From: a virus
Taxonomy: Duplodnaviria; Heunggongvirae; Uroviricota; Caudoviricetes
Reading direction: 5' to 3' (one strand)
IMG/VR virus record: IMGVR_UViG_2657245091_000008
DNA length: 64,000 nucleotides
Under the pieces are notes generated by a model that saw only the letters and a list, made by a program, of their open reading frames with translations, had not been told where the DNA came from and did not search any database. Positions 2,116-55,295 of this stretch are shown here, one piece after another; within the stretch, counting starts at the first letter, position 1, and every line of letters begins with the position of its first letter. Position numbers and translations under genes: made by a program.

Positions 2116-2159
2116 CATTTGTGTTAGAAAATACATATTAATTATCTAACACAAATGGG
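2116..2159. promoter_or_regulatory. Operator-like motif pair (14-bp inverted repeats CCATTTGTGTTAGA / TCTAACACAAATGG) upstream of rdgC
   Basis: Two inverted copies of the recurrent TGTTAGAAAA-type motif. Confidence 0.45.
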
Positions 2160-2167
2160 TGCATTTT

Positions 2168-2821
2168 CTATCCTTTCTTGAAATCGAAGTTGCTAGCAGT
2201 GGCCTGAAAGGTTCCTCCTGCCTTGAAAGCTATGTCTCCGTTAGCGGTGACAGCAATATTTTCCCCTTTAACATTGATGTTGTTGGCTGATTTGACGTTA
2301 ACACTCCCTCCTGCATTCACGATTACATCAGCCGGACCAATGATATATATCTGCCCGGACTCATTCATGCCAATCCTTGAGCCTGCTGCCGTATTGGCAA
2401 TTTCATAGCCGCCACCAGCAGTTCGTACTTCAAGAATATTGTTGCGGTGAATAACGAAGTCTTTCGTTGCTGAGATTTGGGGGCGGGGAGGTGCTCCATC
2501 TACTTCCGGCGGCGTCCAGCCGTTGCCTTTGCCAGATGCTTCTGGTGCAACGTTTGGAATTCCTCCCGGTGCATCCTGAGCGGCACCAACTATCATTGGG
2601 CGTCTGGTGTCTATTCGACCGTTAACATCTAAATAAGGAAACTCTACCCAGACCAGGTCACCTTTGACTGTGGGTACAAAAGCGTTCCCGATGGGTAACT
2701 GGTATTCCGCCCAGGGTAGATCGTCATCAGGAACGCCATTCCAGTCAGGTAAAACACGGACTTGAGCACGCATAAGCCCTGCCGGGTGCACAGTTCCAAC
2801 AATTTGCGCTCTACGCTTCAT
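2168..2821 (-). CDS. Phage baseplate central spike protein (Mu gp45 / P2 gpV-like)
   Basis: N-terminal OB-fold-like pattern (LPWAEYQLPIG...KGDLVWVEFPYLD) followed by Gly/Asn-rich beta-helix-like repeats; last gene of a four-gene operon with overlapping stops. Confidence 0.45.
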   Translation of the reverse strand: MKRRAQIVGTVHPAGLMRAQVRVLPDWNGVPDDDLPWAEYQLPIGNAFVPTVKGDLVWVEFPYLDVNGRIDTRRPMIVGAAQDAPGGIPNVAPEASGKGNGWTPPEVDGAPPRPQISATKDFVIHRNNILEVRTAGGGYEIANTAAGSRIGMNESGQIYIIGPADVIVNAGGSVNVKSANNINVKGENIAVTANGDIAFKAGGTFQATASNFDFKKG

Positions 2822-3798
2822 TTGTTCGGCACTCCCAATATCATTCGTGTTGTGTAGCCTACGCGGTCCTCAAAGTGCGCAACATTTTTTACTATCAGCT
2901 TACGGGGCATTGATTCATCAATGCGGTTTTCCTGGTCATAGCGGTATACGATAATCTCTATTACCATCCCCGGTTTTATATCAGGATTGCCTGCGACTTC
3001 TATATCCATTTTGGGGACGAGAGACAGCTGCATATTGCGAAGAGTTTCCATATCAGAGTCGGATATATAACGCACTGGGAGTGAGCTATCGCCATATTCG
3101 ACGTAGCCATCGGTCATGGAATACCCAACAAAACGATATTGATTCTTTGCTGTTGTCGCATGTTCCTGTTGGAGTAGGCGCATTTTGGACAAAGTGTATT
3201 CTGCTTTAGGGTTATTCCCCTCGTAGGTAAATGATGGCGTTTGCTTCATCAGATCAGCCAGGGTGTAAAAGTTAAATTCCCCCCGGCATACCCAACATAA
3301 TGCACCTTTGTCTCGCGCTATCTCCGAAAGCATTTTTGACGGTTTGTCACCGGCATTCAGATGATATGTAACTGCGCGTTTTAGCACGCTGCTGGTAATT
3401 TTAAGCTTGCCGGAATATGCCTTGAATATAGCGTCTGGTGTTTTGTTGGTATGTAAATTTGTGCGCGGGGAGGGGATCTTAAACCTGCGCACGTCTTCAC
3501 TGACAGCAATAACGGTAACAACATCACCAGCCAGCATTGCAGACGTAACAAAGAAATCTGTTTTAAAAGTGCCTGCATTACCGTTTGGATCGCCCATTTC
3601 AGCCACCAGCGATGCACCGTATTTGGCTTTCCAGTCATCAATTACGGTGCCGGTAGCGTCATGAATTTCCAGTTTTAGCAAAGGGGCTTTGAGGCTGGTT
3701 TTTTCTACATATACTGCGGTAAAAATCCAGTCTCGTGGCACTTTGTTATCGTTAATGAGCACTGACTGTAGAAAATATTGTTGTAACTCCTGGGCCAC
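2818..3798 (-). CDS. Putative baseplate hub-like protein (by position upstream of spike)
   Basis: 326-aa ORF translationally coupled to the spike gene; hub-then-spike order as in Mu 44-45; no motif recognised. Confidence 0.3.
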   Translation of the reverse strand: MAQELQQYFLQSVLINDNKVPRDWIFTAVYVEKTSLKAPLLKLEIHDATGTVIDDWKAKYGASLVAEMGDPNGNAGTFKTDFFVTSAMLAGDVVTVIAVSEDVRRFKIPSPRTNLHTNKTPDAIFKAYSGKLKITSSVLKRAVTYHLNAGDKPSKMLSEIARDKGALCWVCRGEFNFYTLADLMKQTPSFTYEGNNPKAEYTLSKMRLLQQEHATTAKNQYRFVGYSMTDGYVEYGDSSLPVRYISDSDMETLRNMQLSLVPKMDIEVAGNPDIKPGMVIEIIVYRYDQENRIDESMPRKLIVKNVAHFEDRVGYTTRMILGVPNK

Positions 3799-3801
3799 TT
3801 A

Positions 3802-4569
3802 TCACCCCATAGATATCGAGGTTTCGGTAATAATACGTTTTGCGTCCAACTCCCATGCTGTGATCACGTCTGCAATCACACTTATCGGCGCTTGTGTGGC
3901 ATAAATACGCTCTTCTCCAATTGGTGCTGAAACATCCGTAAAGCCGACTTCTTTGGCATCCTGTATCGAGCAAATCAACGGGACCGGGACACGAACAAGG
4001 TGAGTGGTGGCTTCAAATTGTGTACCTGTCATCAGGCGAAGCCGTGCGCCCAGTGAATTACACATCAGACTCATGGTCGCTTTATCAGTTGCCATTAACG
4101 TAACGTCATACGTCAGAATGGCCTGGGTGTATTCCAGTTCTGCTAAAGGCATTCCGGTATCCGGTTCGCAAAAACTGGCTACTTTTTTGCGGTCAATCTG
4201 CTGATCATCGTTGATATAATTGATATCCATAGTGCGTGAGATATTGACCAGGGGGAGAGCATCCCGGTTAATGTTCTGGTTTTCAGGTTTTCTCCCTTGC
4301 CCGGCATTTGCGCGACGAACTGCTTTAAGAAACTCGATCGCATTGTCGAAACGGGCCACATAGACACGCTCTGCTGGTGGACGATTCAGGAATGACGCAA
4401 AGCGTTTTTCTTCCGGCGCGGGGGCCACCAGTAAGATATCAGAAAAAATGTTGCTGATTAGCGTCGCAAACGCGTTATCCACGCTTTCAAAGCCCGTGGT
4501 CTGGAATTTTCCTGTGCGTGAGGTTTGCCATTCACCTGTTCGCGCCAGGAGGGTTTTATTTGAAGTCAT
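3802..4569 (-). CDS. Hypothetical protein (tail/baseplate module?)
   Basis: 255-aa ORF in same operon, stop/start overlap with neighbours. Confidence 0.3.
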   Translation of the reverse strand: MTSNKTLLARTGEWQTSRTGKFQTTGFESVDNAFATLISNIFSDILLVAPAPEEKRFASFLNRPPAERVYVARFDNAIEFLKAVRRANAGQGRKPENQNINRDALPLVNISRTMDINYINDDQQIDRKKVASFCEPDTGMPLAELEYTQAILTYDVTLMATDKATMSLMCNSLGARLRLMTGTQFEATTHLVRVPVPLICSIQDAKEVGFTDVSAPIGEERIYATQAPISVIADVITAWELDAKRIITETSISMG

Positions 4570-5369: not shown

Positions 5370-5519
5370 AGGTCGATCTGTCAGGTATCGAAAGGAAGAT
5401 TTTCGGGAGATTGTGATTTTGGATGAAGGAGGGGGAATTCATAAAATGCACTTGCGCACAGTGCAACGGTGCGCTATAGTTATGGCATTCGGTAATCATC
5501 ACGGAGGATCAAATGACTA

Positions 5520-10020: not shown

Positions 10021-10314
10021 TGCTTTGGCGTTATGACTCCCTACCGCGCTTCGGCTGAAAGTTAATCGTCAAAAGAACCTTCAACGGGAGCCGTTAGCGC
10101 GATGGATTATGTGCAGTTTGTGATTTCAAAAATAGTGTCAACCACTTTTTTTGGATTTTATTTTTTGACAGAAATTTGGCCTAAATCATGTTGATTTGGC
10201 TGATTATTTTTATAACATAAAAGTCATTTTGATTGCATGAAGGACGGTGCAGTGAAGTTAAGGGTTTTAGGGACCGCGCTCGCGGCTAAGATGGTAAAGT
10301 ATGGAGTTAATGAA

Positions 10315-11196: not shown

Positions 11197-11198
11197 TT

Positions 11199-11717: not shown

Positions 11718-12617
11718 CTAAATCAATAGCATGGATTTTCCCGTCCCGGATGGTGCGCCAGTGCTTTCGTGATCCACCTTCGGGCCATACCATACACCTT
11801 CAGGCCAGGAAGAACGACGACACACTGTTGCGTATCCAGTCCTGATCTTCTCTCTGGCGGTATGTAGTGACAGATTATCCTTTGGGCTTTCAGGCACAGG
11901 ATGGTGGATTGCCTGAAACATCCCCATCTTTGGATGATACCAGCGTTTATTGCGTGGTTCTGCCTCCGACATCACCTGCTTAAAGGCTTTCCGGAAGGGG
12001 GCCAGGGCCACAATGGAGCGTCGCGCAAGCAAACCATCTGGAGTTAAAAACTCATGCGTATCGGTGGGAATCCGGTAAGCGTTGACCAGGTTTCGGCATT
12101 TGGCTTCAGTCAGGCCGCATTTCGCCGCCAGCTGGCGGTAGCCAATGTAGCCTTCCGGCATATTGCCTTTCTTTATTTGCTCGACGGTTTCAGCGACTTT
12201 GGACACTTGTGCCGATACTTCGGCTACCTGGGCATTAACAGCGTTGATCCGGCGTTCATGCTCAAGATGCATTTGCGCCATTTCAGCCAGGATTTCGGCT
12301 TTTGATTTTAACGGTTCCCTGGCATTCTCCAGTTCGCGCCAGCGGTCCACCAGCCGGGCGGTGAATTCCGGAGAGAGCTGTGCGACGACAATGATACTAT
12401 CGCGCTTGCCTTGTTCGCCTTCGAAGACGTAAGCCTCGACACTACGGCGTAGTCCTAAGTTGTTGATTTTTTCGAAAACCTCAATTTGAGGAAACCGGAC
12501 AACGCCACCTTTGGCTAATGTCTCAATAGTGCGTTTCACATTATCATGACGCTTACCCACCAGTTCCGCGATCTCAATACTGGTCATTGTCGCTTTGCGA
12601 GAGATGGGCAGATTCAT
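11718..12617 (-). CDS. Phage antirepressor-like protein (Rha family N-terminus), copy 1, with aberrant C-terminal extension
   Basis: N-terminal TSIEIAELVGKRHDNVKRTIE (Rha-type); about 80 percent identical to 52798-53505 over shared length; reads on about 65 aa past where copy 2 stops; translationally coupled to icd-like gene. Confidence 0.7.
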   Translation of the reverse strand: MNLPISRKATMTSIEIAELVGKRHDNVKRTIETLAKGGVVRFPQIEVFEKINNLGLRRSVEAYVFEGEQGKRDSIIVVAQLSPEFTARLVDRWRELENAREPLKSKAEILAEMAQMHLEHERRINAVNAQVAEVSAQVSKVAETVEQIKKGNMPEGYIGYRQLAAKCGLTEAKCRNLVNAYRIPTDTHEFLTPDGLLARRSIVALAPFRKAFKQVMSEAEPRNKRWYHPKMGMFQAIHHPVPESPKDNLSLHTAREKIRTGYATVCRRSSWPEGVWYGPKVDHESTGAPSGTGKSMLLI

Positions 12618-12832: not shown

Positions 12833-13017
12833 ATTGGCAGCCTCCTTTTGCTAAGTTAAGGAGCTACCGCGTGAGGTTCCAATCTCAATGGCGGTAGCAC
12901 TGACTGGGTTGGAACTACCGGCGCAAAAGGGAACCGGCCTGCCTTTCGGCAGCCCAGCCAGCACTACCATTGATCTCTGAGCTAAACGCTACGTATGGCT
13001 GTGCGATGGCATGACAC

Positions 13018-13039
13018 AAAAAAAGACGCTTTCGGCGTC
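13018..13039 (-). terminator. Intrinsic terminator (minus strand)
   Basis: On minus strand GACGC-CGAAA-GCGTC followed by TTTTTTT. Confidence 0.5.
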
Positions 13040-13145
13040 TGTGTCGCCTTTTGCATTATCCGGGGTTCCAATCCCGGCACCCGTTTTTCTAAGGTGCCGT
13101 AGAAATATACCCCACGATAATGCCAGGGCGCAACAGTCAGTATTT

Positions 13146-13628: not shown

Positions 13629-13650
13629 TAAAATGTTAGAAAACTAATTT
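13629..13650. promoter_or_regulatory. Operator-like motif copy
   Basis: AAATGTTAGAAAACTAATTT. Confidence 0.35.
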
Positions 13651-14222
13651 ATCAATTCAATTGCCATCTGATACAACGCCATTTCATCGGCATTGTGCCG
13701 TATGAAATCTGCTTTTCCGCCTATTTTTCCATCAGCATGAACAGGGACCAGCCAGGGATATTGTTCTCGGACCTCGGCTGGCGCTGCGTACTGGTGGTGC
13801 CATTTACACAAAGGGAGGACATATTTATGCGCGTTCTCTGCCGTTCTCCCGAAGATATGGTGCAGGGATACCACTGGGCTATGTTGCCCGTGAATATGGC
13901 AGGCAATGCAGGGGAGAGTACCGATAGCGGTCTGTATCCGGCGTTCATCGGCTGTGAGTGATCTGCCCTTCAGGCCGCGTGACGTGCGTGTTTTTTTGGG
14001 CGGAGCGGATACAGCTTTATCTTTTCTCCGCTGTTCATATTGCTTTGCTTTTTCAATTTTCTTTTGCCGATATTCAGGCGATGCGGCTTTTTCTCTCGCT
14101 CGCTGCTGCTGGCGTTGAGCTTGTTGAAGGCGCTTTGCCCTTTGTTCCTCTCGCCAGGCCGGGTCAGCCAATTTTTGCATGGCCTTTTGTCTCTGTTTCT
14201 CCCAATAACTCTGTTTCTGCAT
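13644..14222 (-). CDS. ref: Ref-like recombination enhancement function protein (HNH endonuclease)
   Basis: 192 aa; basic disordered N-terminal half and HNH-like core CIACHIHGQHSPVVSLHHIFGR...PLCKWHH; size and architecture as P1 Ref; operator-like motif in promoter region. Confidence 0.65.
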   Translation of the reverse strand: MQKQSYWEKQRQKAMQKLADPAWREEQRAKRLQQAQRQQQRAREKAASPEYRQKKIEKAKQYEQRRKDKAVSAPPKKTRTSRGLKGRSLTADERRIQTAIGTLPCIACHIHGQHSPVVSLHHIFGRTAENAHKYVLPLCKWHHQYAAPAEVREQYPWLVPVHADGKIGGKADFIRHNADEMALYQMAIELIN

Positions 14223-14269: not shown

Positions 14270-14310
14270 TGGTTAGATATTCAAAATTGATTTTCTAACA
14301 CAAAACATTA
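14270..14310. promoter_or_regulatory. Operator-like motif pair in ref / 14495 divergent promoter region
   Basis: GGTTAGATATTCAAAATTGATTTTCTAACACAAAAC (two inverted half-sites). Confidence 0.45.
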
Positions 14311-18761: not shown

Positions 18762-18806
18762 AAATTACGTTAGAACATTGATTTTAGTTTTCTAACATAT
18801 TATTTT
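18762..18806. promoter_or_regulatory. Operator-like motif pair upstream of 18840 gene
   Basis: CGTTAGAACATTGATTTTAGTTTTCTAACATATTATTTT. Confidence 0.45.
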
Positions 18807-18839: not shown

Positions 18840-19835
18840 ATGAGTGCAATAATCACCCCATATGTCGTAAATGAAACTGGTGTGGCTGTCTTTCCTGTAG
18901 ATAAGCCCACCAGCAATTACATCGGCGCAGGACGTCGTTTTCTTATATCCCCATTGCCGCGTGAACAGGCTGAAAACACCCCTGATGGTGTCGTTGACCT
19001 GAATTATTCACTGGTTACCAACCAGTCACTGGCACCCTTTTTTCAAAGTGAGCGCGTATTTAACGCGTTAGGTGGTGAGGATTCTCTCGTTCACTGGGTT
19101 AGCACCAACATTCACGATTGCCAGGCGCATGATAAGCGCGATTGCAGCCACCAGCTAACCACCCATTTCTATAACGGTTCTGCCGTTCGCCTGTGCTGGA
19201 AGCATGATGCGGAATACATGATGAAGGGATACGGCAAGCTGGAAGACCAACTGTCACTGAATCGCGCCAACTGGATTATGAACTGGGCTGCCAGCGAGTT
19301 AAAACTTCCGCCAGATCGCGATCTGAGCATGGTTGAACTCACCTTTTGGGCCATTCGCCGGAATCTTAAAGACGAACTGCCTGATGAAGCTGGTCGCATT
19401 GCATTTTGTCAGCCAAAAACTGAAATCCCTACCGGCACTCTGAAAGAGTCGGATATTACCTGGGAGCATAGTACCCGCGAGCTGGTGGATATTTCCGCAG
19501 AGCAGATCGTCAATCTGTCCGTCGATGAAGATTCTGGCCTCCTATATATGCGCCGTCCAAAAACCTTACTCGGAAAAAGCCCGGCTTATCTCCGGTTTGT
19601 GGTGTCTCGCCCGTGTGTAGGCTGCGGCGGTAAGGTTAATCACCCATTCATGTACCGCGCCCGCTCGTTAAACGAACACGACCGCTGGGCTGTTCCTCTT
19701 TGCGATGACTGCGCCAGAAGCGCAGAAAACGATGTCCGGGCATGGGAAAAAGCACATGGCATACGCCTTTACGTAGCCGCTAACCAGCTTTTCGACTTCG
19801 CCATCGAGCGCGGAGTAATCACGTTTAATAACTAA
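18840..19835 (+). CDS. Hypothetical Cys-rich protein (possibly DUF968-like)
   Basis: 331 aa; C-terminal CVGCGG...PLCDDCAR zinc-binding-like pairs; operator-like motifs upstream. Confidence 0.5.
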   Translation: MSAIITPYVVNETGVAVFPVDKPTSNYIGAGRRFLISPLPREQAENTPDGVVDLNYSLVTNQSLAPFFQSERVFNALGGEDSLVHWVSTNIHDCQAHDKRDCSHQLTTHFYNGSAVRLCWKHDAEYMMKGYGKLEDQLSLNRANWIMNWAASELKLPPDRDLSMVELTFWAIRRNLKDELPDEAGRIAFCQPKTEIPTGTLKESDITWEHSTRELVDISAEQIVNLSVDEDSGLLYMRRPKTLLGKSPAYLRFVVSRPCVGCGGKVNHPFMYRARSLNEHDRWAVPLCDDCARSAENDVRAWEKAHGIRLYVAANQLFDFAIERGVITFNN

Positions 19836-31876: not shown

Positions 31877-31897
31877 GATGTGTTAGAAATTTAATTT
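31877..31897. promoter_or_regulatory. Operator-like motif upstream of the 31822-to-27943 operon
   Basis: GATGTGTTAGAAATTTAATTT. Confidence 0.45.
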
Positions 31898-33076: not shown

Positions 33077-33108
33077 TAACTTTAAATAATGCCAATTATT
33101 TAAAGTTA
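33077..33108. other. lox-like recombination site candidate
   Basis: TAACTTTAAATAAT-GCCA-ATTATTTAAAGTTA, perfect 14-bp inverted arms (or 12-bp arms with 8-bp spacer ATGCCAAT); arms share TAACTT and ATA with loxP arm ATAACTTCGTATA; about 150 bp upstream of cre-like start. Confidence 0.5.
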
Positions 33109-33285
33109 CAGAATGGCGATTTTTTTTAATCCATCATAGATTGATTTTGACCAGTAACACGTTGCCTTCATGGTCTTTAATTTGCGAAGTGTGGTTTATA
33201 CAGTTGGTTTTCTAAAATTGATGACAAAAAATCACAGTTCGATCCTTTACTCACTCTGTTATTCGACATAAATTTGTCATAGTAA

Positions 33286-33307
33286 TTTTATGTTAGAAAA
33301 CTAAATC
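33286..33307. promoter_or_regulatory. Operator-like motif upstream of 33319 gene
   Basis: TTTTATGTTAGAAAACTAAATC. Confidence 0.45.
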
Positions 33308-33318: not shown

Positions 33319-34356
33319 ATGAGTAAGAAGTCGATCGAGAAAGAGTACAAACGGTTCCTGCAAACCGCTGAACGGTGGAAAGAGCTGGTGGTCGCAAACT
33401 CTGTTTTCCATGATACCAGTTATGCTGGCGAGGAATTCCGCCATGTTGCATTAACGCATGACCAAAACATATTAGAAGAAGCTGAAAAATGTCTTGCTGA
33501 ATGGAAAGCCTTCGTTGACATGTGCCGCGATGCCGACGGCAAAGCGTCGAACATTGTTGAGTCTGTATATTCTCCGATCCCATTCATCATTGAGGACACC
33601 AATCAAAGCACGCATGTTGTTGTGCAAAGCGCTACAACAACACGTACATTTACACGTGAACAATTGCTCAAAAAATACGACAAAATCATAAAGAAAAGCC
33701 TGAAAAATAGGGTTTTTTCTCAAATTGTAGGTGCTCTTGAAGAAGAACAGCGCTTCTTTGAAGCTGAGCCTGAAGGCGAGATCTACCGGGCGCGTAAAGA
33801 GGCATATACAGATGTTGTGCTGACAACAAACATCGAAGGCAGCAATGCCCTTTCTCGCTTTAGAGTTGGCGCACATGGCGCATTGGTTTTCGCAAGACTA
33901 CCGAAGACAACGATCCCCGTTGTCAATAATGTTGGTGAACGCCGGAGCATTACAATTTATTCAGGCGTCGAATCGGTACCTTGCAGCCTTCTCGGCGATT
34001 TTAACTTATATCGTGTTCGTGACCTGGAAAAACACCAGCCAAGCTACGTTGCGAAGTCGTACATCTTAAGGAACATCGATATTCGCAATGAAAGCCTTAA
34101 GCAGAAATCCGCTAAGATGCTGGAGGATGCCGATCCGGCTATTCGCCATATCATTGAGCGTAAGATACGTACATCACGTGAAGCAATGGCAAGGCTGGAT
34201 AAAATGGATCTGGAATTGTTAGACGTAATGATGGCCTCTGGAGACGACCTGACCGGCATTAAACTGAATGAAGCTCGTAAAAAATACGGCAAAGCAATCG
34301 AAGAACGTTACGGATACACATTCCCCCAAACGCAGTACGCCGCGAAGCTCTGGTAA
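33319..34356 (+). CDS. Hypothetical protein occupying the c1-like position (convergent with pacB)
   Basis: 345-aa ORF; operator-like motif overlaps its promoter region; no HTH recognised. Confidence 0.5.
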   Translation: MSKKSIEKEYKRFLQTAERWKELVVANSVFHDTSYAGEEFRHVALTHDQNILEEAEKCLAEWKAFVDMCRDADGKASNIVESVYSPIPFIIEDTNQSTHVVVQSATTTRTFTREQLLKKYDKIIKKSLKNRVFSQIVGALEEEQRFFEAEPEGEIYRARKEAYTDVVLTTNIEGSNALSRFRVGAHGALVFARLPKTTIPVVNNVGERRSITIYSGVESVPCSLLGDFNLYRVRDLEKHQPSYVAKSYILRNIDIRNESLKQKSAKMLEDADPAIRHIIERKIRTSREAMARLDKMDLELLDVMMASGDDLTGIKLNEARKKYGKAIEERYGYTFPQTQYAAKLW

Positions 34357-37256: not shown

Positions 37257-37645
37257 AAAGCAACACCACGCTTTTTAACGGCGGCATTCCACAGCTTATT
37301 CGCCATGTCCACCAGCTCTCGTTGCTCTTTTCGCGCCTGTTCGACTGATTTCCTGCTACAGTTTTTAACCAGTAAGCTACCGTATTCAGGCGTGCGCCCG
37401 CGCACCTTGAACTGATATCCGTTCAGACCATGTAGCCAGTATTTTCGTGGATACACACGATCATCCAGCTCACAGATTGCCCTGCTTGAACGAACAAAAT
37501 GACGAATGATGTTAGTTACACTTACTCGTGAAACATGGAGATGAGGGTATTTTTCTTTGGCGAGAGTGGTAATTTCAGTGACTGTCAGATAGCAGTCAGC
37601 CCTGATCATGATATCCGCAATTTCTGCGCTGCTGATTTGTTCCAT
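37253..37645 (-). CDS. Lpa-like late promoter activator (by position upstream of pacA)
   Basis: 130-aa ORF immediately upstream of and overlapping pacA; operator-like motif upstream; assignment by synteny only. Confidence 0.45.
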   Translation of the reverse strand: MEQISSAEIADIMIRADCYLTVTEITTLAKEKYPHLHVSRVSVTNIIRHFVRSSRAICELDDRVYPRKYWLHGLNGYQFKVRGRTPEYGSLLVKNCSRKSVEQARKEQRELVDMANKLWNAAVKKRGVAL

Positions 37646-37718: not shown

Positions 37719-37740
37719 GATTGTATTAGAAAATTAATAT
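37719..37740. promoter_or_regulatory. Operator-like motif upstream of lpa-like gene
   Basis: GATTGTATTAGAAAATTAATAT. Confidence 0.45.
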
Positions 37741-37753
37741 TAAACACCTAATG

Positions 37754-39175: not shown

Positions 39176-39251
39176 TGGTGGCCCCTACCGGATTTGAACC
39201 GGTGACCGTGCGATTATGAGTCGCCTGCTCTAACCACTGAGCTAAAGGGCC
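39176..39251 (-). tRNA. tRNA-Ile2 (anticodon CAU, ileX-like; elongator Met not excluded)
   Basis: GGCCCTTTAGCTCAGTGGTTAGAGCAGGCGACTCATAATCGCACGGTCACCGGTTCAAATCCGGTAGGGGCCACCA; canonical cloverleaf, near-identical anticodon arm to E. coli ileX. Confidence 0.8.
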
Positions 39252-39388
39252 AGATTACTGTTAATTCCGCTTACGCTTTTTGCCAGAACCGCGTAAGGCT
39301 TTTGCCGCTTGCTCGACCCCATATGCAACCACCAGCAAAAATAAAAATGTCCAACCAGGGTTCTTATCGGCAAACGCCCAAAAATTCA

Positions 39389-39712
39389 TCACTTACAGCC
39401 ACCTTGCATTTCCTCGGATAATTCATTGATTTTAGTGCTCAATAAGTAATCAAAGTAAAGATAAAACACAAAAGTAACGATAGTGCTTAAAGTGTCTGAA
39501 ATTGCGTATTTCAGCTCAGGAAGCATGACAAAGCAGACAAATAGCGGAAGAAATAACTGCACTATGCACAGGCTCTCCTTCCACAACCATCTATATCTGA
39601 AGTCTGACAACAAAAACTCCATTGCTTGAAACTTTATTAGATTGCGGTGCCTGGTGCCTCCAGGTGACGTTAACCAGTTAACAATTAACGCCGGGATGTT
39701 TGACTTAACCAC
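39389..39712 (-). CDS. Hypothetical small membrane protein
   Basis: 107-aa AT-rich ORF between tRNA genes, hydrophobic. Confidence 0.3.
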   Translation of the reverse strand: MVKSNIPALIVNWLTSPGGTRHRNLIKFQAMEFLLSDFRYRWLWKESLCIVQLFLPLFVCFVMLPELKYAISDTLSTIVTFVFYLYFDYLLSTKINELSEEMQGGCK

Positions 39713-39872
39713 TAAGGAGGATTGTTTTAACTGTTCCGCGTGCGCTTAGCCGCATTCACCGCAATGGTAAGAGCACTTGGCTGGCTGGGCGGCGATGACG
39801 CCTGTACGCATTTGGTGATCCGGTTCTGCTTCCGGCATTCGCTTAATTAGCCAAATACTCTTAACGTTGCGC

Positions 39873-39959
39873 TGGCGGAGAGTAATGGAATCGAACCATC
39901 ATCGCTTGCGCAATGGGACGGTTTTCAAGACCGCTTGAGCACCATGCTCCCTACTCTCC
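39873..39959 (-). tRNA. tRNA-Ser-like (anticodon UGA), type II with atypical D-arm
   Basis: Acceptor GGAGAGT/ACTCTCC+GCCA, anticodon arm CGGTCTTGAAAACCG as in E. coli tRNA-Ser(UGA), long variable arm, T-loop GGTTCGATTCC; D-arm non-canonical. Confidence 0.55.
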
Positions 39960-40323
39960 CGTTATTGTGGCGACCGGTGCTGATCTCCGGCTTGCGGTTA
40001 TTTCAGACTCTCACGGGCGTTTAATTGCCCCGCCGAACAGCTCTTTTCCGCAATAGCTGCAATGTCTTTCGCGCATCAGCCTGCGCATTCACCACAATGT
40101 TGAGAACACTGGTTGTCACGCTGCAACGCAACATTTATTCGTAGATTGGGATATGACCCCGTTACGCCAGTGTTCTCAACGTTGTAGTGCCGGTTACGGT
40201 TCCGGCCAGGCCTCTTCCTCAACGGGGTGTTCTCCATACGGACTACCGTTTATTGGTCGTTCCTGCGGTTTATGTTGTGAAGCCAGATGCTTATCTTCTG
40301 GTTGCTTCAAAGAGCTGCACTTC

Positions 40324-40412
40324 CTCACAACGGTAAGGGTACTTCGTAGGGATTCGAACCCTCTGCCAAGCTCGGCGATCTCCGACGTCGCAAAATACCC
40401 TTACCTGTTGTG
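40324..40412 (-). pseudogene. tRNA-like remnant (acceptor, D-arm and T-arm but no anticodon arm)
   Basis: T-loop signature AGGGTTCGAATCCCT and pairing acceptor-like stem, only about 65 nt core, enclosed by a 16-bp extended stem. Confidence 0.3.
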
Positions 40413-40413
40413 C

Positions 40414-40489
40414 TGGTGCCGATTAACGGACTCGAACCGCTGACCATTCGCTTACAAAGCGACTGCTCTACCAACTGAGCTAAATCGGC
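40414..40489 (-). tRNA. tRNA-Thr (anticodon UGU)
   Basis: GCCGATTTAGCTCAGTTGGTAGAGCAGTCGCTTTGTAAGCGAATGGTCAGCGGTTCGAGTCCGTTAATCGGCACCA; canonical cloverleaf. Confidence 0.8.
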
Positions 40490-40493
40490 AATT

Positions 40494-40580
40494 TGGTGGG
40501 GAGTGATGGAGTCGAACCACCCGAGTCGCAATGACAGTAGATTTACAGTCTACCCCGCTACCCCTACGGACTAACTCCCC
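40494..40580 (-). tRNA. tRNA-Tyr-like (anticodon GUA), type II with atypical D-arm
   Basis: Acceptor GGGGAGT/ACTCCCC+ACCA, anticodon arm GTAGACTGTAAATCTAC, long variable arm, T-loop GGTTCGACTCC. Confidence 0.55.
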
Positions 40581-40585
40581 TAAAG

Positions 40586-40662
40586 TGGCGATGGTGGGTG
40601 GATTCGAACCACCGACCGACAGCTTAGAAGGCTGCTGCTCTATCCTACTGAGCTACACCATC
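40586..40662 (-). tRNA. tRNA-Arg (anticodon UCU)
   Basis: GATGGTGTAGCTCAGTAGGATAGAGCAGCAGCCTTCTAAGCTGTCGGTCGGTGGTTCGAATCCACCCACCATCGCCA; perfect acceptor, D and T stems. Confidence 0.8.
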
Positions 40663-41883
40663 ACTTGCCGGGTACGTCTCCGGCGAGGGCTTCCACCTCC
40701 GTATGCTTTTCGGCGCACCGCGCCCTGGCTGCAATTCGGTAACAGGGGATGCATAACCCTGGCTTCCAGCGTGATTAGCGCCTTCAGCATGACGGGATAT
40801 ACCCGTTACAAGAAATTCCCCCAGGATGCCATTAAGCAATGGCTGTTACGCGGGAGGGACGTAACAGGTAAGGGCGCTGACCAGAAAGACCTGACCCTTC
40901 TCATTCATCTGGTTAATCACACCAGCGCCCTTGCCTGTTATGCCTCCCCGTTCCCTAATACACAGACGGGGACACTCTGCGGTCGATTTTTTGACGGGGG
41001 ACGACTCATACCCCGTGGCGTCTGGCTTCTTAGGCCGCTACCATCATCAGATCATCGTTTGCATTTACTTTAATGGTCGGTTTCTAAACCGCCGCAAAGT
41101 CGCTAACCATGACGAAAACCCTAAAAAAGCCCACCCGAAGATGGGCAAATACGCTACATCTCACACAAGAAAGAAGCCGACTGCCTGAGCTGGATTCACT
41201 TTCAAATGCCCGCAGAAAGGGATCACAAGTCGGCTTCTTTCTTGATGCGGCACTCTCTCCGCCCGTCACCGCTCTGTCTCGGTTGTCGCGTTTGCCACGC
41301 CAGCCGTAACGAGGTTTAAAGTCTTTGCACGTTTCCATCACTCGACTGCCGTCTGTGGCTGTTCGTTGCAGCGGGGGTGCCTCCCCCTGGGGATATCCCC
41401 GGCCTTACCCCATTCTTTCAAGACACAATGCAAGGCCACATCCGCATAGGTGCATTACCGCAACATTAAGGAGACTCAGGGCAAAAGGTAACCGCCACAA
41501 AAATCCCTATGCCTCCTTAATGTTGAAGATGTGCATTGATGATTAGATGCAGCATGTACTGTTACTCTCTGCCGGACCATCATCAATGAACACCTTAAAA
41601 AGACCTTCCGTGGCTCAACATGTATTGTCGTTTACTCCGCAAAGTGCTCTCTCTGAAACCACTTTCCGCACTAAACCTGTTGAACTTTGGTCAGCTCGGT
41701 GCCAAAGCGTGCTTTTGCTTTACTATACTTTTCTAACACTTTAATTTGTTAACAGCCGGTGGGCAAACAATAACCAATAAGTGACTATCAAGCCCAGCAA
41801 GCGAAACGTGGGTGCCGCCCACCAGCAAGGAAAATTCTATGTTAAGTTATCATCACAATCAATACATTCGAATTGTGATTTTA

Positions 41884-41900
41884 GATTTCTAACACATTAC
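41884..41900. promoter_or_regulatory. Operator-like motif copy
   Basis: GATTTCTAACACATTAC. Confidence 0.3.
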
Positions 41901-43120
41901 TTCCCGTAAAGATCTTCTACGCCCCCATTCTTCTTATCCCATTCGTTCGCCCATACCCGGCAAGCGTCAATGATTTCCTGACGACGATCTCCTTGCATGA
42001 ACGGGATGCTTTCATGGAAACAGCTTGGAATGCAGGCCACACTGAATACGGTATCAAACTCCGTCTGCTTGATTGCCTCCAGCGTCTCTGGACGCATTTT
42101 TAATTCATCGATTGGCGCATCCTTAGAGTCCATAATCCGGCGATATAAGCGCGGAAAATCCGTCTCCAGGTACGCCATAATTTTATCTGCGAGACATTCG
42201 TCTATGTCGGTATTCCAGTCCTTTTCGAAGCCCGGCAGGCGATAGTAAAGCGGCGTTCCCCATACCGATGGGATCACATCCATCGTTAACAGGCGATTGG
42301 TTCTGATTTGTTGATGGTAATTAGCCGTCAGCAGTGCTTCGCCACGCTGCCCAGTTTCCGCAACCAGGCCGTGCGGATACTCATGGATGTAGGCAATGGC
42401 ATCCCTTCCATCATACATAAGTGGAAATGTCTCTGGTCTTTGTCCCATGCCACAAGCACGGTTCAGATCGTGACCAAGCTGTGAGCACTCTCGCTTTAAT
42501 GTTTCGATAATGCTCTGCGCTGTAGCCAACTTTTTACGCAGTGTGACGCCTTCGCCTTGATAATCAATGCATTGCTGATTGAGCTTGGTTAAACGCTCTT
42601 TTAGTTCCCGGCGCTCTCTTTTCAGCGTGCGGTTATCCTTCTCCGCAACATCCAGCCGCTTTGTCAGGCTGGGCGGATAGTCTTTTTTGTAACGGTTCAA
42701 ATCGGCTTCGGCAGATTTACGCAGTGTATTTGCCTGTTCAAGACGCGCTTCCAGATTGCCGATCTCATTACGCATATTCGCGGCAAATTGATTAACTGCA
42801 TCACCCAGGCTTTCAACTGTCGCTGATACGCCTGTGACTTGTGAAAAACGGATCAAGCCATCATTAACGGCTTGTTGGTATTCCTCAAACTGATCCACCA
42901 GCTTATTGTAATCAACTGCCCCATCATCAAGCAGCTTGTTGATTTCCGCCACCAGGTTATCTGTAGTGGCAATGACACTCTCGTGCAGTCGCTTTGACAG
43001 GTCATCACCCGGATTCCGTTTCTGTATAAGAGCGATTTGTGTGCGCAGCGTTTCAATTGCTGTCGAGATAATTTCCAGATTAGAAGTATCAGTGTGTTGA
43101 CTCATTGCTGTTCCCGTCAC
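41897..43120 (-). CDS. Hypothetical protein (N-terminal coiled coil)
   Basis: 407-aa ORF; operator-like motif just upstream. Confidence 0.55.
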   Translation of the reverse strand: MTGTAMSQHTDTSNLEIISTAIETLRTQIALIQKRNPGDDLSKRLHESVIATTDNLVAEINKLLDDGAVDYNKLVDQFEEYQQAVNDGLIRFSQVTGVSATVESLGDAVNQFAANMRNEIGNLEARLEQANTLRKSAEADLNRYKKDYPPSLTKRLDVAEKDNRTLKRERRELKERLTKLNQQCIDYQGEGVTLRKKLATAQSIIETLKRECSQLGHDLNRACGMGQRPETFPLMYDGRDAIAYIHEYPHGLVAETGQRGEALLTANYHQQIRTNRLLTMDVIPSVWGTPLYYRLPGFEKDWNTDIDECLADKIMAYLETDFPRLYRRIMDSKDAPIDELKMRPETLEAIKQTEFDTVFSVACIPSCFHESIPFMQGDRRQEIIDACRVWANEWDKKNGGVEDLYGK

Positions 43121-43126
43121 CTTGTT

Positions 43127-43153
43127 AAATTAGTTTTCTAACATATTTTATTA
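43127..43153. promoter_or_regulatory. Operator-like motif upstream of 41897-43120 gene
   Basis: AAATTAGTTTTCTAACATATTTTATTA. Confidence 0.45.
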
Positions 43154-43729: not shown

Positions 43730-44224
43730 TTAATCAAGACAAACATACTCCGTGATAGCTTTTATGGCTTCAGCGGCACTGCGCGCCTCAAAGCAGTAGT
43801 AACCGGCTTCAGTGAGGCGAGTCATCCAGACGAGTTGTTCGGGAGTCAGGCGATTTCTCCCATGTTTCATCTCAATGCGCATTCCGTGGTATCCCCCACA
43901 AGCAAGGTCTATAGAAAGATCGGGATATCCCTTCTTTTGGCCCTCTGCCACCATTTTTATTGCCGTCCTTATGCCTCGCAGGCCACCGTTTGGAGTGGCG
44001 TGAGTATGCTCATACACATAACGCATATTGCGATACAACCAGTCCAGGACGCGAACCTGCTCGTAATGCTCATGGTTCCTTTTGATTAGATCTGGGTTTT
44101 TCTCCAGTTCTCTAAGAGCTGCGGCATGTGGGGATGTTTCAGAATATTCACTGCGACGCCTTCTCTTTCGCGCTATTTTTCTAACACACCCATTGATAGT
44201 AAATGTGCGAAATAATAACAACAA
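43730..44224 (-). CDS. VRR-NUC domain nuclease-like protein
   Basis: EHYEQVRVLDWL...GYPDLSIDLACGGYHGMRIEMKHGRNRLTPEQLVWMTRL matches VRR-NUC; track start is TTG and overlaps an operator-like motif, true start probably further downstream. Confidence 0.6.
   Translation of the reverse strand: MLLLFRTFTINGCVRKIARKRRRRSEYSETSPHAAALRELEKNPDLIKRNHEHYEQVRVLDWLYRNMRYVYEHTHATPNGGLRGIRTAIKMVAEGQKKGYPDLSIDLACGGYHGMRIEMKHGRNRLTPEQLVWMTRLTEAGYYCFEARSAAEAIKAITEYVCLD
44174..44194. promoter_or_regulatory. Operator-like motif at 5' end of VRR-NUC gene
   Basis: TATTTTTCTAACACACCCATT. Confidence 0.4.
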
Positions 44225-44360: not shown

Positions 44361-44621
44361 TTAAAGGGTTATTTTATCCTGTTCGGATAATTCTTTGATT
44401 GTCTTGTCGATTGCGATCAACCAACCTTCATAGGTTAAATCATCAACAAGTTCTACCAACTTATCATCGGTGTGAGGAAAGTATATCCAGCTCCAGTTCG
44501 CAGGGTTTTCTGCTTTTCGCAGCGTAAAAACCTTCTTGTATCGGTGGAACTCAAGGATATACCCCTTCGATATGGAATATTCCTTTAGGTCTTCGACCGT
44601 AAACCTACGATTCTTTCGCAT
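44361..44621 (-). CDS. Hypothetical protein
   Basis: 86-aa ORF. Confidence 0.45.
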   Translation of the reverse strand: MRKNRRFTVEDLKEYSISKGYILEFHRYKKVFTLRKAENPANWSWIYFPHTDDKLVELVDDLTYEGWLIAIDKTIKELSEQDKITL

Positions 44622-51931: not shown

Positions 51932-52082
51932 AGGATTTCCCCCTCTAAACCGTAAAAAATTCCGCTATGCGGTACGGTTGAGAGGGTATGGAGAATGTTA
52001 TTTTCAGGGGGACGATACTACCGTCAAAATCACATACTCCCCATAGTTTGCCTACTTATTAACCCATGACCGGGAGAAAAAT

Positions 52083-52600: not shown

Positions 52601-52801
52601 TCAAGTCACGATCCAATCATTACCGACTATATCAGCCGTCGATAAATCAACTTCCCGGATCTGGAGTCCATTAATACAAAACCATCCGGTAGTAGAGTAA
52701 TTATCAGGCCAGGCCCATACACCAACACTCCATGCTTTACGGCGGCACACTTCAGCCTGTCCTTCCCTGATTTTTTTTACCGCCTGCATGATGTCCATCA
52801 C
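52601..52801 (-). CDS. Small DUF2829-like protein downstream of antirepressor copy 2
   Basis: 66 aa; VKKIREGQAEVCRRKAWSVGVW...ADIVGNDWIVT fits the DUF2829 pattern; terminator follows. Confidence 0.4.
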   Translation of the reverse strand: MMDIMQAVKKIREGQAEVCRRKAWSVGVWAWPDNYSTTGWFCINGLQIREVDLSTADIVGNDWIVT

Positions 52802-53505
52802 TCACCTCCCCAACCGATCACCTGGAATTGCCCCATTTTGGGGTGATACCAGCGTTTTCCTCGGTGTTCAGCCTCCGACATCATCCGGTTAAAAGCATTC
52901 ATGAAGGGATATAAGGCCACGATGGAACGACGCGACAATACCCCCTCTGGAGTTAAAAACTCATGCGTATCGGTGGGAATCCGGTAAGCGTTGACAAGGT
53001 TGCGGCATTTGGCTTCAGTCAGGCCACATTTCGCCGCCAGCTGGCGGTAGCCAATGTAGCCTTCCGGAATATTGCCTTTCTTTATTTGCTCGACGGTTTC
53101 AGCGACCTGGCTAACCTTTGACTCAACAGCATGAATCCGCTTTTGCTGCTGAACTGCATTCGCAGCCATTGCAGCGATCATCTCTATTTCGGTCAACGGC
53201 TGGCGTACTTGTTCTTCCAGTTCGCGCCAGCGGTCCACCAGCCGGGCGGTGAATTCGGGAGAGAGCTGCGCGACGACAATGATGCTGTCTCGTTTGCCTT
53301 GCTCGCCTTCGAAGACGTAAGCCTCAACGCCACGACGCAATCCTAAGTTATTGATTTTTTCGAAAACAGCCATTGGCGGTTTTCGGATAATGCTTCGAGC
53401 AACCATACGCTCAATACTACGTTTAACGTCAGAGTGTTGGCTTCCCACCAGCTCCGCAATCTCAATGCTGGTCATTGATAGTTTTTCGAGAATGCAGATA
53501 CCCAT
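52798..53505 (-). CDS. Phage antirepressor-like protein (Rha family N-terminus), copy 2
   Basis: MTSIEIAELVGSQHSDVKRSIE; paralog of 11718-12617; ATGA coupling with icd-like gene. Confidence 0.7.
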   Translation of the reverse strand: MGICILEKLSMTSIEIAELVGSQHSDVKRSIERMVARSIIRKPPMAVFEKINNLGLRRGVEAYVFEGEQGKRDSIIVVAQLSPEFTARLVDRWRELEEQVRQPLTEIEMIAAMAANAVQQQKRIHAVESKVSQVAETVEQIKKGNIPEGYIGYRQLAAKCGLTEAKCRNLVNAYRIPTDTHEFLTPEGVLSRRSIVALYPFMNAFNRMMSEAEHRGKRWYHPKMGQFQVIGWGGE

Positions 53506-53729: not shown

Positions 53730-54057
53730 AGTTACGGCCTCACTAACAGGTTTAACAACCTGCCACCCGCTGTCAAACAGGTGGCAGGACGTGACAGGGT
53801 TGACAGACTGGCGTTAGTGAAACCAGCAGGCCGAAGCCTCCCCATCACGCCCCACCATAATTCGGGCGTAACGCGGTTTACGGACACAAAAATACCGCAA
53901 TATCGGAAATCTGCGGTTGTCCGCACTAACATTCAGGCTGTCAAACCCGGTCGCAGAATTTGCTACGACGGCATGAATATAAGCCTGAAAACATGGAAGA
54001 TCAACTAAAAATTTCAGCAATGGATGACTTCAGTCGATGATGCAGATCATACATTCC

Positions 54058-54096
54058 GTTTTAGAAACAGCAAATTAATTTTCTAACATAAATCAT
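54058..54096. promoter_or_regulatory. Operator-like motif pair
   Basis: TTTTAGAAACAGCAAATTAATTTTCTAACATAAATCATC. Confidence 0.4.
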
Positions 54097-54142
54097 CGGC
54101 CGAGCATTTTCCGATCATTGGGATGTTTTGTAGACACACAGG

Positions 54143-55105
54143 TCATCCCCTAAATCCCGCAGGGATTGACCAATCCTCACGGTCAAATTCAGACCGATAG
54201 CCACGCTGTTTCATCAGGTCAAAGGCTTCACCAATGGTTGCACACCCCTGGGAGCCAGAATAATCCATTGAGAAATCTAGGGCACTGGATTGTTTAGGCT
54301 TATTCACTGCGGTAGCGGCACTACGTATCCATGCAAATTTTTTTGCCAGCTTTTCAGCGGTACGATACAGAGCCTGCCGTTTTGCGTGCCCCTCGTCTGA
54401 ACGACGCTTTGCAGCTCTCGCTTTTGCCGCCGCCAGGCAGTGGTTGGTATGTTCTTCCCTGATTACTGGTTTTTTATCCAGTACCACGTTATCCGTTTGA
54501 GAACTATCTGCTGGTGAAGCCTTTGGCTGAACCGCGCATGATCTTTCTCTTCTTTTGGCTATAGAGTGACTCTTATTTTCTATTGGCTGTTCATTTTGAA
54601 CATGGGGGGACTTGTTCAATTTGAACAGGGGGTTCCCAGTTTCAAAAAAATAACGAACCTTTGAAATCAACTGCTTAACCAGTTTTGTGGCGTTGGCAAA
54701 TTTGATGCCCTGCTTACCCCCTATCTCCATTGCTACATGAATGAAGTGGAGAAATTGTGTCGTAAACCGATATACGTTACACACCTGGGCATTGTTATTC
54801 GCTACCTGATGTTGCTTAACAAGCATTCCGCACTTCGTCGCTTCAGCAAATGCCCGGCGCACAGTAGAAATACTGCGTCCTGTAATCTCGGACATATCAG
54901 CATATGAGCGACGGATCATGTATTCATCGGTAGACCCTGCCAGGTTAGCGAACTCGGCAATAATGGCGCTATGTGAAGGGGAAAGAAGACCGCTATGACG
55001 AGCAAAAAAACTCAACTGATGACCTTTGATTTTTTTGTGGTATTCAGTGTTGTTTTTATACTCAGAAGTGTTGAAAGTTACTGAAACTGAATTTAAAATA
55101 CTCAC
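54143..55105 (-). CDS. Hypothetical HTH-containing protein (possible RepL-type replication/regulatory protein)
   Basis: 320 aa; HTH-like MSEITGRSISTVRRAFAEATKCGMLVKQ; operator-like motifs flank the gene. Confidence 0.45.
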   Translation of the reverse strand: MSILNSVSVTFNTSEYKNNTEYHKKIKGHQLSFFARHSGLLSPSHSAIIAEFANLAGSTDEYMIRRSYADMSEITGRSISTVRRAFAEATKCGMLVKQHQVANNNAQVCNVYRFTTQFLHFIHVAMEIGGKQGIKFANATKLVKQLISKVRYFFETGNPLFKLNKSPHVQNEQPIENKSHSIAKRRERSCAVQPKASPADSSQTDNVVLDKKPVIREEHTNHCLAAAKARAAKRRSDEGHAKRQALYRTAEKLAKKFAWIRSAATAVNKPKQSSALDFSMDYSGSQGCATIGEAFDLMKQRGYRSEFDREDWSIPAGFRG

Positions 55106-55274
55106 CAGATAGTTCCGTGAAAAAATCTATCTACCGTATAAATCTATGGCAGTGGATTTATACACCCAAAAAGCCGCTTCTCAGCGGCTTTTGCTTTTTT
55201 GGCAGTCGCTACCGGAGCAGTGACCGCGATCCTACTCGATCCCATCCACCAGGATCAACAGTGTATATAAATAC

Positions 55275-55295
55275 ACTATGTTAGAAATTTAACTT
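55275..55295. promoter_or_regulatory. Operator-like motif upstream of 54143-55105 gene
   Basis: ACTATGTTAGAAATTTAACTT. Confidence 0.4.

Follow-up and report, generated by a model that had tools for sequence, protein, structure and literature searches.

A recurrent motif in a D6-like phage is probably the operator set of its own C1-type repressor

In phages P1 and P7, a C1-family gene has the pac genes and a Cre/Dre recombinase site as neighbours, and more than 10 asymmetric sites of ~17 bp are scattered as single copies or overlapping inverted pairs; both traits recur in the DNA studied here, a viral stretch of 64,000 nucleotides (the window) that shares 95-98% identity with D6, a phage distantly related to P1. 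As for the targets, P1 and the window have in common c1, lpa, repL, c4-icd-ant, ref and its 3′ end, rdgC/hrdC, pmgR/S, pmgL/M, and the tRNA-tci operon, and in both the antirepressor is under a C4 antisense RNA. The initial annotation of the window had likened the distribution and asymmetry of its sites to those of the P1 C1 operators, and the comparison bears this out: gene contexts and the mix of monovalent and bivalent sites match the P1 annotation (Table 1).

The operators themselves differ in sequence, TGTTAGAAAAYTAATTT in the window and ATTGCTCTAATAAATTT in P1, with no cross-matches: the P1 consensus, which the initial annotation had given correctly as differing from the motif, has no match in the window at ≤3 mismatches, and the D6-type matrix gives nothing above 12.6 in P1. 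The window pairs measure 30 bp with a 4-bp overlap, whereas P1 Obanab has 28 bp with a 6-bp overlap; several window sites are inverted with respect to their P1 counterparts; and the window, unlike P1, contains two c4-icd-ant modules, with antirepressors of the Rha family. On sequence evidence, this system is of the same kind as the P1-type network and belongs to a different specificity group, and the differing operators, together with the c1 gene of the window, support the heteroimmune C1-like repressor proposed earlier. Since the specificity is unlike that of P1 and P7, heteroimmunity towards both is to be expected.

Table 1. Candidate operators and associated features of the window, with the P1 counterparts of the sites
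Feature	Position	Strand or halves; score	Context	P1 counterpart
Bivalent operator (candidate)	2122..2151	2122-2138(+)/2135-2151(-), 4 bp overlap; 24.3, 27.2	12 bp upstream of rdgC start (rdgC 1203-2108, - strand; RdgC Pfam 4.8e-102); overlaps predicted promoter TAGAAA-18-GATAAT	Odmt, before uhr-hrdC-dmt
C4	12887-12974		Rfam; upstream of icd and Rha-family ant	
isrK	13019-13097		Part of second isrK/C4-icd-ant module	
Monovalent operator (candidate)	13634-13650	+; 27.4	Spans ref stop codon; on the - strand, upstream of small ORFs and second isrK/C4-icd-ant module	Omat 2628-2645, likewise over end of ref (P1 ref 2077-2637)
Operator (candidate)	14271..14300	Strong half 14284-14300(-), 28.1; degenerate + strand partner, 7.4	Between ref (13644-14222, -; Ref Pfam 1.3e-34) and divergent DUF4406 operon	Oref
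Bivalent operator (candidate)	18768..18797	18768-18784(+)/18781-18797(-); 21.8, 28.5	Between ppp and DUF968/pdcB-like gene (18840-19835, +); kept in relatives	
Monovalent operator (candidate)	31881-31897	+; 29.5	3′ end of dre recombinase gene, upstream of orf2-orf3-dut operon (- strand); conserved island in alignment	
Weak additional site near c1	33203-33219	-		
Monovalent operator (candidate)	33291-33307	+	12 bp upstream of c1 start codon; conserved in relatives with 80% and 70% identical C1	Operators likewise upstream of c1 and coi
c1 (candidate repressor reading the motif)	33319..34356	+	345 aa, C1 family; between rox/dre and pacB	
Operator (candidate)	37724..37753	Strong half 37724-37740(+), 27.0; degenerate partner, 4.5	Upstream of lpa (late-promoter activator; 37253-37645, -; Lpa Pfam PF25716, 192 bits)	Olpa
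tRNAs	39179-40662			
Operator (candidate)	41865..41894	Strong half 41878-41894(-), 26.8; partner 3.7	Just 3′ of pmgS; 16 bp upstream of predicted promoter TTGATT-17-TAGAAT facing tRNA/tci region	Bivalent Oban before tRNA-tci-ban operon (matched by context)
Monovalent operator (candidate)	43127-43143	-; 30.7	7 bp upstream of pmgS start; after terminator hairpin; adjoins TAAAAT -10; sharp conserved island, flanks diverged	OpmgRa/b
Weak or half operator (candidate)	44170-44186	-; 9.6	TGTGTTAGAAA kept, 3′ half degenerate; 5′ end of VRR-NUC/pmgM gene (domain VRR_NUC), just downstream of good promoter TTTACA-16-TATTAT with TG; conserved island, same place in relatives (18.3, 18.6)	O26 before pmgL-pmgM
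C4	53777-53862		Rfam; upstream of icd and ant of Rha family	
c4-a1b1	53930-53982		Rfam	
Operator (candidate)	54059..54088	Strong half 54072-54088(-), 31.2	Upstream of c4-icd-ant (antirepressor) module; overlaps predicted -35	Oc4, overlapping a -35 too
Monovalent operator (candidate)	55279-55295	+; 26.8	Between pro end and repL (54143-55105, -); adjoins conserved palindrome and cluster of three GATC sites	OrepL at PkilA, also with three Dam sites

Regarding its frequency, the pattern TGTTAGAAAANTAATTT has 16 matches at ≤3 mismatches in the 64,000-nt window against 0.96 expected, and the exact core TGTTAGAAA has 12 copies against 0.72; none of 100 shuffles attained either count. The most frequent 10-mer of the window is TGTTAGAAAA, and an unbiased 8-mer scan places TGTTAGAA first among the 8-mers enriched in non-coding DNA; run on P1, the same scan gives its highest ranks to the core of the known C1 operators. 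An iterated weight matrix yields 13 strong half-sites at 11 loci (scores 21.8-31.2; next best 10.7), joined by a weaker twelfth locus before the VRR-NUC gene; they are asymmetric 17-19-mers, and all 11 strong loci are wholly or mostly non-coding in a window that, by a crude gene map, is ~90% coding. Weak matches at 10201 (score 9.9) and 30230 (score 9.2) are best taken as chance. The initial annotation had reported a recurrent motif at 12 loci between 2116 and 55295, single or as inverted pairs, and had named a lack of enrichment in intergenic or promoter regions as grounds for rejecting its reading; the loci, their span, both forms, and the list of adjacent genes were all recovered, and the non-coding enrichment is strong. 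One point was clarified: it is the site at 55279 that precedes repL, whereas the one at 54072 follows repL and precedes a c4-icd-ant module.

As for the architecture, two of the 30-bp pairs are strong and four degenerate, and six loci are single; at 6 of the 12 loci the partner half scores far above background (-33.9 ± 10). The geometry of the pairs is constant, with a 15-bp offset in three genomes, and the relative CP104667 has full pairs at the ref/DUF4406, lpa, and pmgS-tRNA loci, where the partners are degenerate in the window. The sites touch promoter-like hexamers or transcription starts or lie within ~20 bp of them, arrangements that occur in P1 too; the position of the motif ranges from ahead of the -35 to beyond the transcription start, and the lpa, repL, and 41878 sites are 16-19 bp upstream of a predicted -35. 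The promoter predictions are weak consensus matches (8-9 of 12), and shuffled sequence contains such matches at least as often; at the dre 3′ site (31881) no predicted promoter was found. Relative to the target genes, the sites of the window face either way; in P1, most operators run in the direction of the gene.

Phage D6 carries the same sites, and in other relatives the TGTTAGAAA core stands out as a conserved island amid diverged intergenic DNA. The motif is retained where C1 is 44-100% identical (relatives at 80%, 70%, 51%, and 44%); relatives with ~30% identical C1 have the related motifs CSTTAGAATTAC and TTTAGAATTG at the same positions. In Leclercia (C1 30%), CSTTAGAATTAC takes the place of the motif, and in Pantoea (C1 28%) TTTAGAAWTG does so, each ranking first among the 8-mers enriched in the non-coding DNA of its genome; both have an equivalent site at the recombinase 3′ end, each with its own motif. 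Because the genomes diverged as wholes, this co-variation of motif and C1 allele is not specific to C1. Relatives have an additional site beside the capsid gene, outside the 64,000-nt window.

The window C1 corresponds to D6 orf1, annotated as "prophage repressor". Its identity with P1 c1 is 21% over 268 aa (tblastn), and it has ~100 additional C-terminal helical residues compared with P1 C1; it matches NCBIfam NF041318 (phage_rep_C1) with an E of 8.9e-6, far below the equivalog cutoff, and PF27008 (Phage_P7_repressor_C1) in precomputed Pfam. A superfamily profile search reaches, via intermediates, a cluster 53% identical to P1 C1. Judged by these sequence comparisons, the 345-aa protein is a member of the P1/P7 C1 family; its AF2 model has a pLDDT of 95.1. 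With P1 Lxc (Bof) as the query, BLAST yielded nothing, even in 44361-44621, the candidate by position, and no ORF between rox and c1 could encode Coi; both are small, fast-evolving proteins, so that homologues may have escaped detection.

Taken together, the motif very probably marks the operators of the C1-type repressor that the phage itself encodes, in a heteroimmune network of the P1 type; we infer that C1 is the binder, that its binding represses, and the stoichiometry. In the prophage state, C1 would bind each asymmetric ~17-19 bp site, T-R-TGTTAGAAAA-Y-TAATTT, with one molecule per single site and two, inverted, per 30-bp pair, and the bound protein would block or trap RNA polymerase at neighbouring sigma-70 promoters. 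It would hold down repL, for lytic replication, both c4-icd-ant antirepressor modules, lpa, for late-gene activation, the recombination genes ref and rdgC, several accessory operons, and c1 itself by autoregulation; the late operons would be silent indirectly, through repression of lpa.

Instead of C1, another regulator might bind the sites, namely an early activator of the phage, a second repressor (e.g., of the Rha family), or a host nucleoid protein, with C1 recognising something else. The co-variation of the motif with the lineage fits any diverging phage factor; mixed orientation and the location of some sites upstream of a -35, as activators use, point the same way. However, no second dispersed non-coding motif is left for C1, the only other coherent motif being the late box described below, and the contexts match the P1 C1 regulon nearly one-to-one, c1 autoregulation included. 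The specificity of a host factor would not shift among closely related enterobacterial hosts, and, compared by eye, the motif is unlike the LexA or the IHF consensus. Binding by another regulator is improbable.

Still less probable is that the motif is a promoter element, either the Lpa-dependent late box or a shared early-promoter or UP-like module to which no repressor is dedicated. It is AT-rich, it is found at promoters, and it holds -10/-35-like hexamers (TAAAAT, TTAGAA). The Lpa-dependent late promoters of P1, made of a -22 box AAGTGACTT plus a -10, are likewise short recurrent elements before phage operons, some adjoining C1 operators. Unlike these, the motif precedes lpa, c1, and the early genes repL, ant, and ref, and the window has no copy of it at the operons for portal, tail, head, and lysis; its distance to the -10 is variable, as is its position relative to the -35, which is not expected of a fixed element, and the inverted 30-bp pairs have no promoter logic. 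The late operons (portal, tail, lysis, head) carry a different box, AAATCACAyAyT, with a TAnnnT -10-like hexamer 3-5 nt on; this separate AAATCACA box is conserved even in Leclercia, whose operator motif differs, and the window has almost no copies of the P1-type late box. Therefore, the motif is not the late-promoter element that the initial annotation had considered as an alternative. Its absence upstream of morphogenesis operons, claimed in the same source, stands for these late operons and does not extend to pmgS and pmgM/VRR-NUC, which carry sites as in P1 and are annotated as "putative morphogenetic" in D6 and P1.

Finally, that the motif is a repeat with no function or a chance product of composition, conceivable given AT-rich intergenic DNA and the low information of the motif 3′ half, has next to no probability and is effectively refuted already by the enrichment, matrix, and conservation results: shuffles never reached the observed counts in either search, the G-containing core TGTTAGA is an island kept in relatives amid diverged flanks, and the offset of the pairs does not change across the three genomes.

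With regard to how C1 might read such sites, the sole PDB match of its predicted fold was Tus, with low TM-scores (0.32-0.41) in a search made with a first, weaker model. Pfam Ter (PF05472) had no match at E up to 10 in nine C1 family members, alignment of the C1 family to Tus had an hhalign probability of 7.8%, and the resemblance between the operator and Ter DNA, with p about 0.08 by our own estimate, is not significant. The E. coli Tus-Ter system is a replication fork trap that arrests forks, whereas C1 would act in transcriptional repression at many sites. This model-based link is a lead, and a Tus-like fold would fit the binding of a monomer to asymmetric sites. It is possible, if rather doubtful, that the C1 proteins of the P1/D6 type are structural and perhaps evolutionary kin of Tus, reading their asymmetric operators as monomers via a Tus-like DNA-binding cleft; the operators of all C1 lineages would then have a TTAGA(A/G) core in common, and their lineage-specific flanks would set immunity specificity. 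If so, the narrowly distributed enterobacterial Tus-Ter could stem from the repressor/operator pair of a phage-plasmid, or the reverse. Core and flanks would be TTAGAG-CAAT in P1 (reverse complement), TG-TTAGAA-AAYTAATTT in D6, CS-TTAGAA-TTAC in Leclercia, and TT-TTAGAA-WTG in Pantoea.

The recurrent asymmetric sequence that the initial annotation proposed as a dispersed C1-like operator at 12 loci is confirmed and greatly exceeds chance: allowing three mismatches, TGTTAGAAAANTAATTT has 16 matches in the window versus 0.96 expected, a number attained in 0 of 100 shuffles, and exact copies of the core TGTTAGAAA number 12 versus 0.72 expected; the most frequent 10-mer of the window is TGTTAGAAAA. 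An iterated weight matrix of 19 positions, T-R-TGTTAGAAAA-Y-TAATTT, scored 13 half-sites at 21.8-31.2, with the next best at 10.7; these form 11 strong loci, and the twelfth, weaker one (44170-44186) retains the TGTGTTAGAAA half alone. All 11 strong loci are wholly or mostly non-coding in a window that, on a crude gene map, is ~90% coding. When non-coding-enriched 8-mers were scanned without a prior motif, TGTTAGAA ranked first; the same scan is validated by P1, where its top matches are the known C1 operator core.

Most of the window matches Escherichia phage D6 (MF356679), a circular plasmid prophage and distant P1 relative, at 95-98% identity. The same sites are present in D6 itself, and neither D6 GenBank record carries operator features. 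Gene identities were taken from the D6 annotation, Pfam and Rfam. In each of two separate immI-like modules (12887-13097 and 53777-53982), a C4 antisense RNA precedes icd and the gene of a Rha-family antirepressor (ant); a c4-a1b1 target element was found in one, an isrK-like RNA match in the other.

Genes, proposed operator sites and candidate late boxes of the window, with the corresponding P1 operators; partner scores are to be read against a background of -33.9 +/- 10
Feature	Position	Strand	Context or type	P1 counterpart
rdgC	1203-2108	-
ant, second c4-icd-ant module	11718-12617
C4 RNA, second module	12887-12974
isrK-like RNA, second module	13019-13097
ref	13644-14222	-
DUF968/pdcB-like gene	18840-19835	+
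dre	31896-32924	-
rox	about 33077-33108
c1	33319-34356	+
lpa	37253-37645	-	adjoined by pacA, pacB
pmgS	41897-43120	-
VRR-NUC/pmgM	43730-44224	-
ant, one c4-icd-ant module	52798-53505
C4 RNA, same module	53777-53862
repL	54143-55105	-
Inverted pair	2122-2151		both 17-mers strong; before rdgC	Odmt, before uhr-hrdC-dmt
Single site	13634		across ref stop codon	Omat 2628-2645 (ref 2077-2637)
Pair, degenerate partner (7.4)	14271-14300		site 14284, before ref	Oref
Inverted pair	18768-18797		both 17-mers strong; before DUF968 gene
Single site	31881		dre 3' end
Single site	33291		12 bp before c1	operators before c1/coi
Pair, degenerate partner (4.5)	37724-37753		site 37724, before lpa	Olpa
Pair, degenerate partner (3.7)	41865-41894		site 41878, before promoter facing tRNA/tci region	bivalent Oban, before tRNA-tci-ban operon
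Single site	43127		before pmgS	OpmgRa/b
Single site	44170		before pmgM/VRR-NUC	O26, before pmgL-pmgM
Pair, degenerate partner (-1.0)	54059-54088		site 54072, overlaps predicted -35 before c4-icd-ant	Oc4, same overlap
Single site	55279		before repL, beside three GATC sites	OrepL at PkilA, with three Dam sites
Late box, clear copy	52027-52049	+
Late box, clear copy	58033-58053	-
Late box, clear copy	59480-59500	-
Late box, further candidate	5412-5419
Late box, further candidate	10119-10126

Regarding its anatomy, every site is asymmetric; in the information profile the 5' part, TGTTAGAAA, is near-invariant, with a looser 3' part, AYTAATTT. A site stands either alone or in an inverted pair, a 30-bp unit made of two 17-mers with a 4-bp overlap; in the relatives the offset within pairs is 15 bp throughout, and several of the window's degenerate pairs have full counterparts there. 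The pmgS operator, 43117-43143(-), and the repL operator, 55279-55305(+), have a further 10 nt in common after the 17-mer (AACAAGGTGA, AACAAGGCGA); in the repL operator these extra nucleotides run away from any gene. Two weak sites, 41722-41738(-) TGTTAGAAAAGTATAGT and 44170-44186(-) TGTTAGAAAAATAGCGC, are like TGTTAGAAAAATAGATT, the operator variant of the lineage with 51% C1 identity, and may be relics or low-affinity sites.

As for their placement, the sites correspond closely in gene context to the C1 operators of P1, taken from AF234172, a record annotating both C1 operators and late promoters; only the pair before the DUF968 gene and the site at the dre 3' end are without a clear counterpart. 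Most sites coincide with promoter-like hexamers or have them no more than about 20 bp away; these hexamers are weak consensus matches, and those of strict promoter scans of the window were no commoner than in shuffles, so that promoter overlap is taken only as consistent with and supportive of the operator model. A perfect palindrome, AGTGTATATAAATACACT (55260-55277), adjoins the repL operator and is kept in relatives; the three GATC sites (55228, 55238 and 55253) are just downstream of it, reminiscent of the three Dam sites of P1 PkilA, and a hairpin (55169-55192) like a bidirectional terminator separates this region from repL.

Homologues of the window's C1 were found in 149 plasmid records, from 100% down to 24% identity, in E. 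coli, Salmonella, Shigella, Citrobacter, Pantoea and other hosts, and the motif tracks their lineage. With C1 at 80% (E. coli CP104667) and 70% (Shigella CP026818), the same motif occupies the same positions, with one additional site beside a capsid gene, in a region outside the window; in alignments with both, the TGTTAGAAA core is a conserved island between diverged flanks. At 51% and 44% (metagenomic contigs), the TGTTAGAAAA half is kept at the c1, lpa, recombinase 3', pmgS and DUF968 positions; drift of the 3' half is seen in the 51% lineage. The D6-type motif was not found in Leclercia pE1_003 (C1 about 30%), where the top non-coding-enriched 8-mer is CTTAGAAT (9/9 copies non-coding), largely at equivalent positions: before ref, before c1, at the recombinase 3' end and at pro 3'/repL; related sites before rdgC, pmgS and VRR-NUC read GTTAGAAT or GTTAGATT. 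In Pantoea pPSP-26e (C1 28%) the equivalent 8-mer, TTTAGAAT, is non-coding in 12 of 13 copies, once more at those positions and once more with inverted pairs. Conserved positions, with a sequence that follows the C1 lineage, are as expected of a co-evolving repressor/operator pair. The dispersed motifs that these distant D6-like plasmids have at the same gene positions are CSTTAGAATTAC in Leclercia (CP042508) and TTTAGAAWTGyRTGTG in Pantoea (CP009882). Between tail genes of Leclercia (our L010, about 30193-30250), tandem 8-bp units with ACTGTATGAC, detected as a non-coding-enriched k-mer, are unrelated to the operator.

The 345-aa C1 has only 21% identity with P1 C1, and its match to NCBIfam phage_rep_C1 (E 8.9e-6) is far below the equivalog cutoff; its precomputed Pfam assignment is PF27008, Phage_P7_repressor_C1, and it had no matches in local Pfam-A, PDB sequences or BFVD. 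A profile search of 1.84 billion representatives gave 83 members, including a cluster 53% identical to P1 C1 and intermediates joining the D6 and P1 types; judged by sequence, the protein thus belongs to the same family as P1 C1. The common part covers residues about 5-245, and the D6 type has about 100 additional C-terminal helical residues. No homologues of P1 Lxc or Coi were found for the window, so fine control may differ from P1.

Regarding specificity, the P1 consensus given in the initial annotation, ATTGCTCTAATAAATTT, was correct, as confirmed from annotated P1 sites and from PMC8546580, and the operator sequence does differ from it: with up to three mismatches it has no match in the window, and the D6-type matrix finds nothing above 12.6 on P1. 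PMC8546580 lists 22 P1 operators and calls them asymmetric. Because neither motif is found in the other genome, the two systems should be mutually blind, i.e. heteroimmune. A TTAGA(A/G) core is common to four lineages (P1, D6, Leclercia and Pantoea); on its other strand the P1 operator reads AAATTTA-TTAGAG-CAAT. TTNNAA is palindromic, so P1 and D6 operators can be aligned on either strand, and site orientation at orthologous loci is mixed. In inverted pairs the cores face outward in Pantoea and P1, and inward in the D6 type.

The alternative that the motif is a late-promoter element, standing in for those of P1 type, was rejected, as the late operons bear a separate box. P1-like late promoters were likewise rejected, given that the window has next to no copies of the P1 late box AAGTGACTT. 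What the portal, head, tail, mat-like and hydrolase (lysis) operons share is AAATCACAyAyT, which differs from the P1 box and is followed 3-5 nt on by a TAnnnT hexamer. This candidate box recurs before late genes of relatives, including Leclercia, whose operator motif differs, so the genome has two separate cis-regulons, the motif being the early, immunity one. The initial annotation had named a late-promoter role as a refuting condition, and this result answers it.

In the operator model, C1 would occupy single and paired operators in the prophage state and repress repL, both antirepressor modules, lpa, ref, rdgC, accessory operons and c1 itself; with lpa off, the AAATCACA late promoters would be silent, and the two c4-icd-ant modules would offer the route to derepression. 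The analysis shows the sites with their placement, architecture, conservation and co-variation, and the family to which C1 belongs; binding of C1 to the sites, repression by it and its stoichiometry are what we infer here. The system is a P1-type network of a different specificity group in a phage with a published genome; a full-text literature search for the motif, D6 and C1 repressor gave nothing relevant, and published D6 accounts may already list the sites. For the D6 group of plasmid prophages, the analysis defines both the immunity regulon and the operator consensus by computation, which would explain the expected heteroimmunity of D6 to P1. Besides the already exploited Dre/rox pair of the same locus, this gives a candidate repressor/operator pair orthogonal to P1 C1, and a natural series for specificity change in a monomeric repressor, in which C1 identity falls from 100% to 28% while operators drift, then switch.

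The more novel by-products are the shared TTAGA core and a possible resemblance of C1 to Tus, the E. coli replication terminator protein. The latter is graded as a lead, since C1 has no match to Pfam Ter, hhalign of its family against Tus gave a nonsignificant probability of 7.8%, and TM-scores of a first, weaker predicted C1 model were low (0.32-0.41). The likeness of Ter to operator DNA was judged not significant (our own estimate, p about 0.08), and no paper connecting Tus with C1 repressors was found in a full-text search. Both Tus and P1 C1 recognise asymmetric sites as monomers, so a link would rationalise the site architecture; a Tus-like fold, if true, would for the first time explain in structural terms how C1 reads asymmetric operators, and would suggest where Tus may have come from.

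Finally, Chi, GCTGGTGG, is present in 42 copies over the whole window (14 on the plus and 28 on the minus strand) versus about 1.6 expected; P1 is also Chi-rich, and the relatives have a similar excess.
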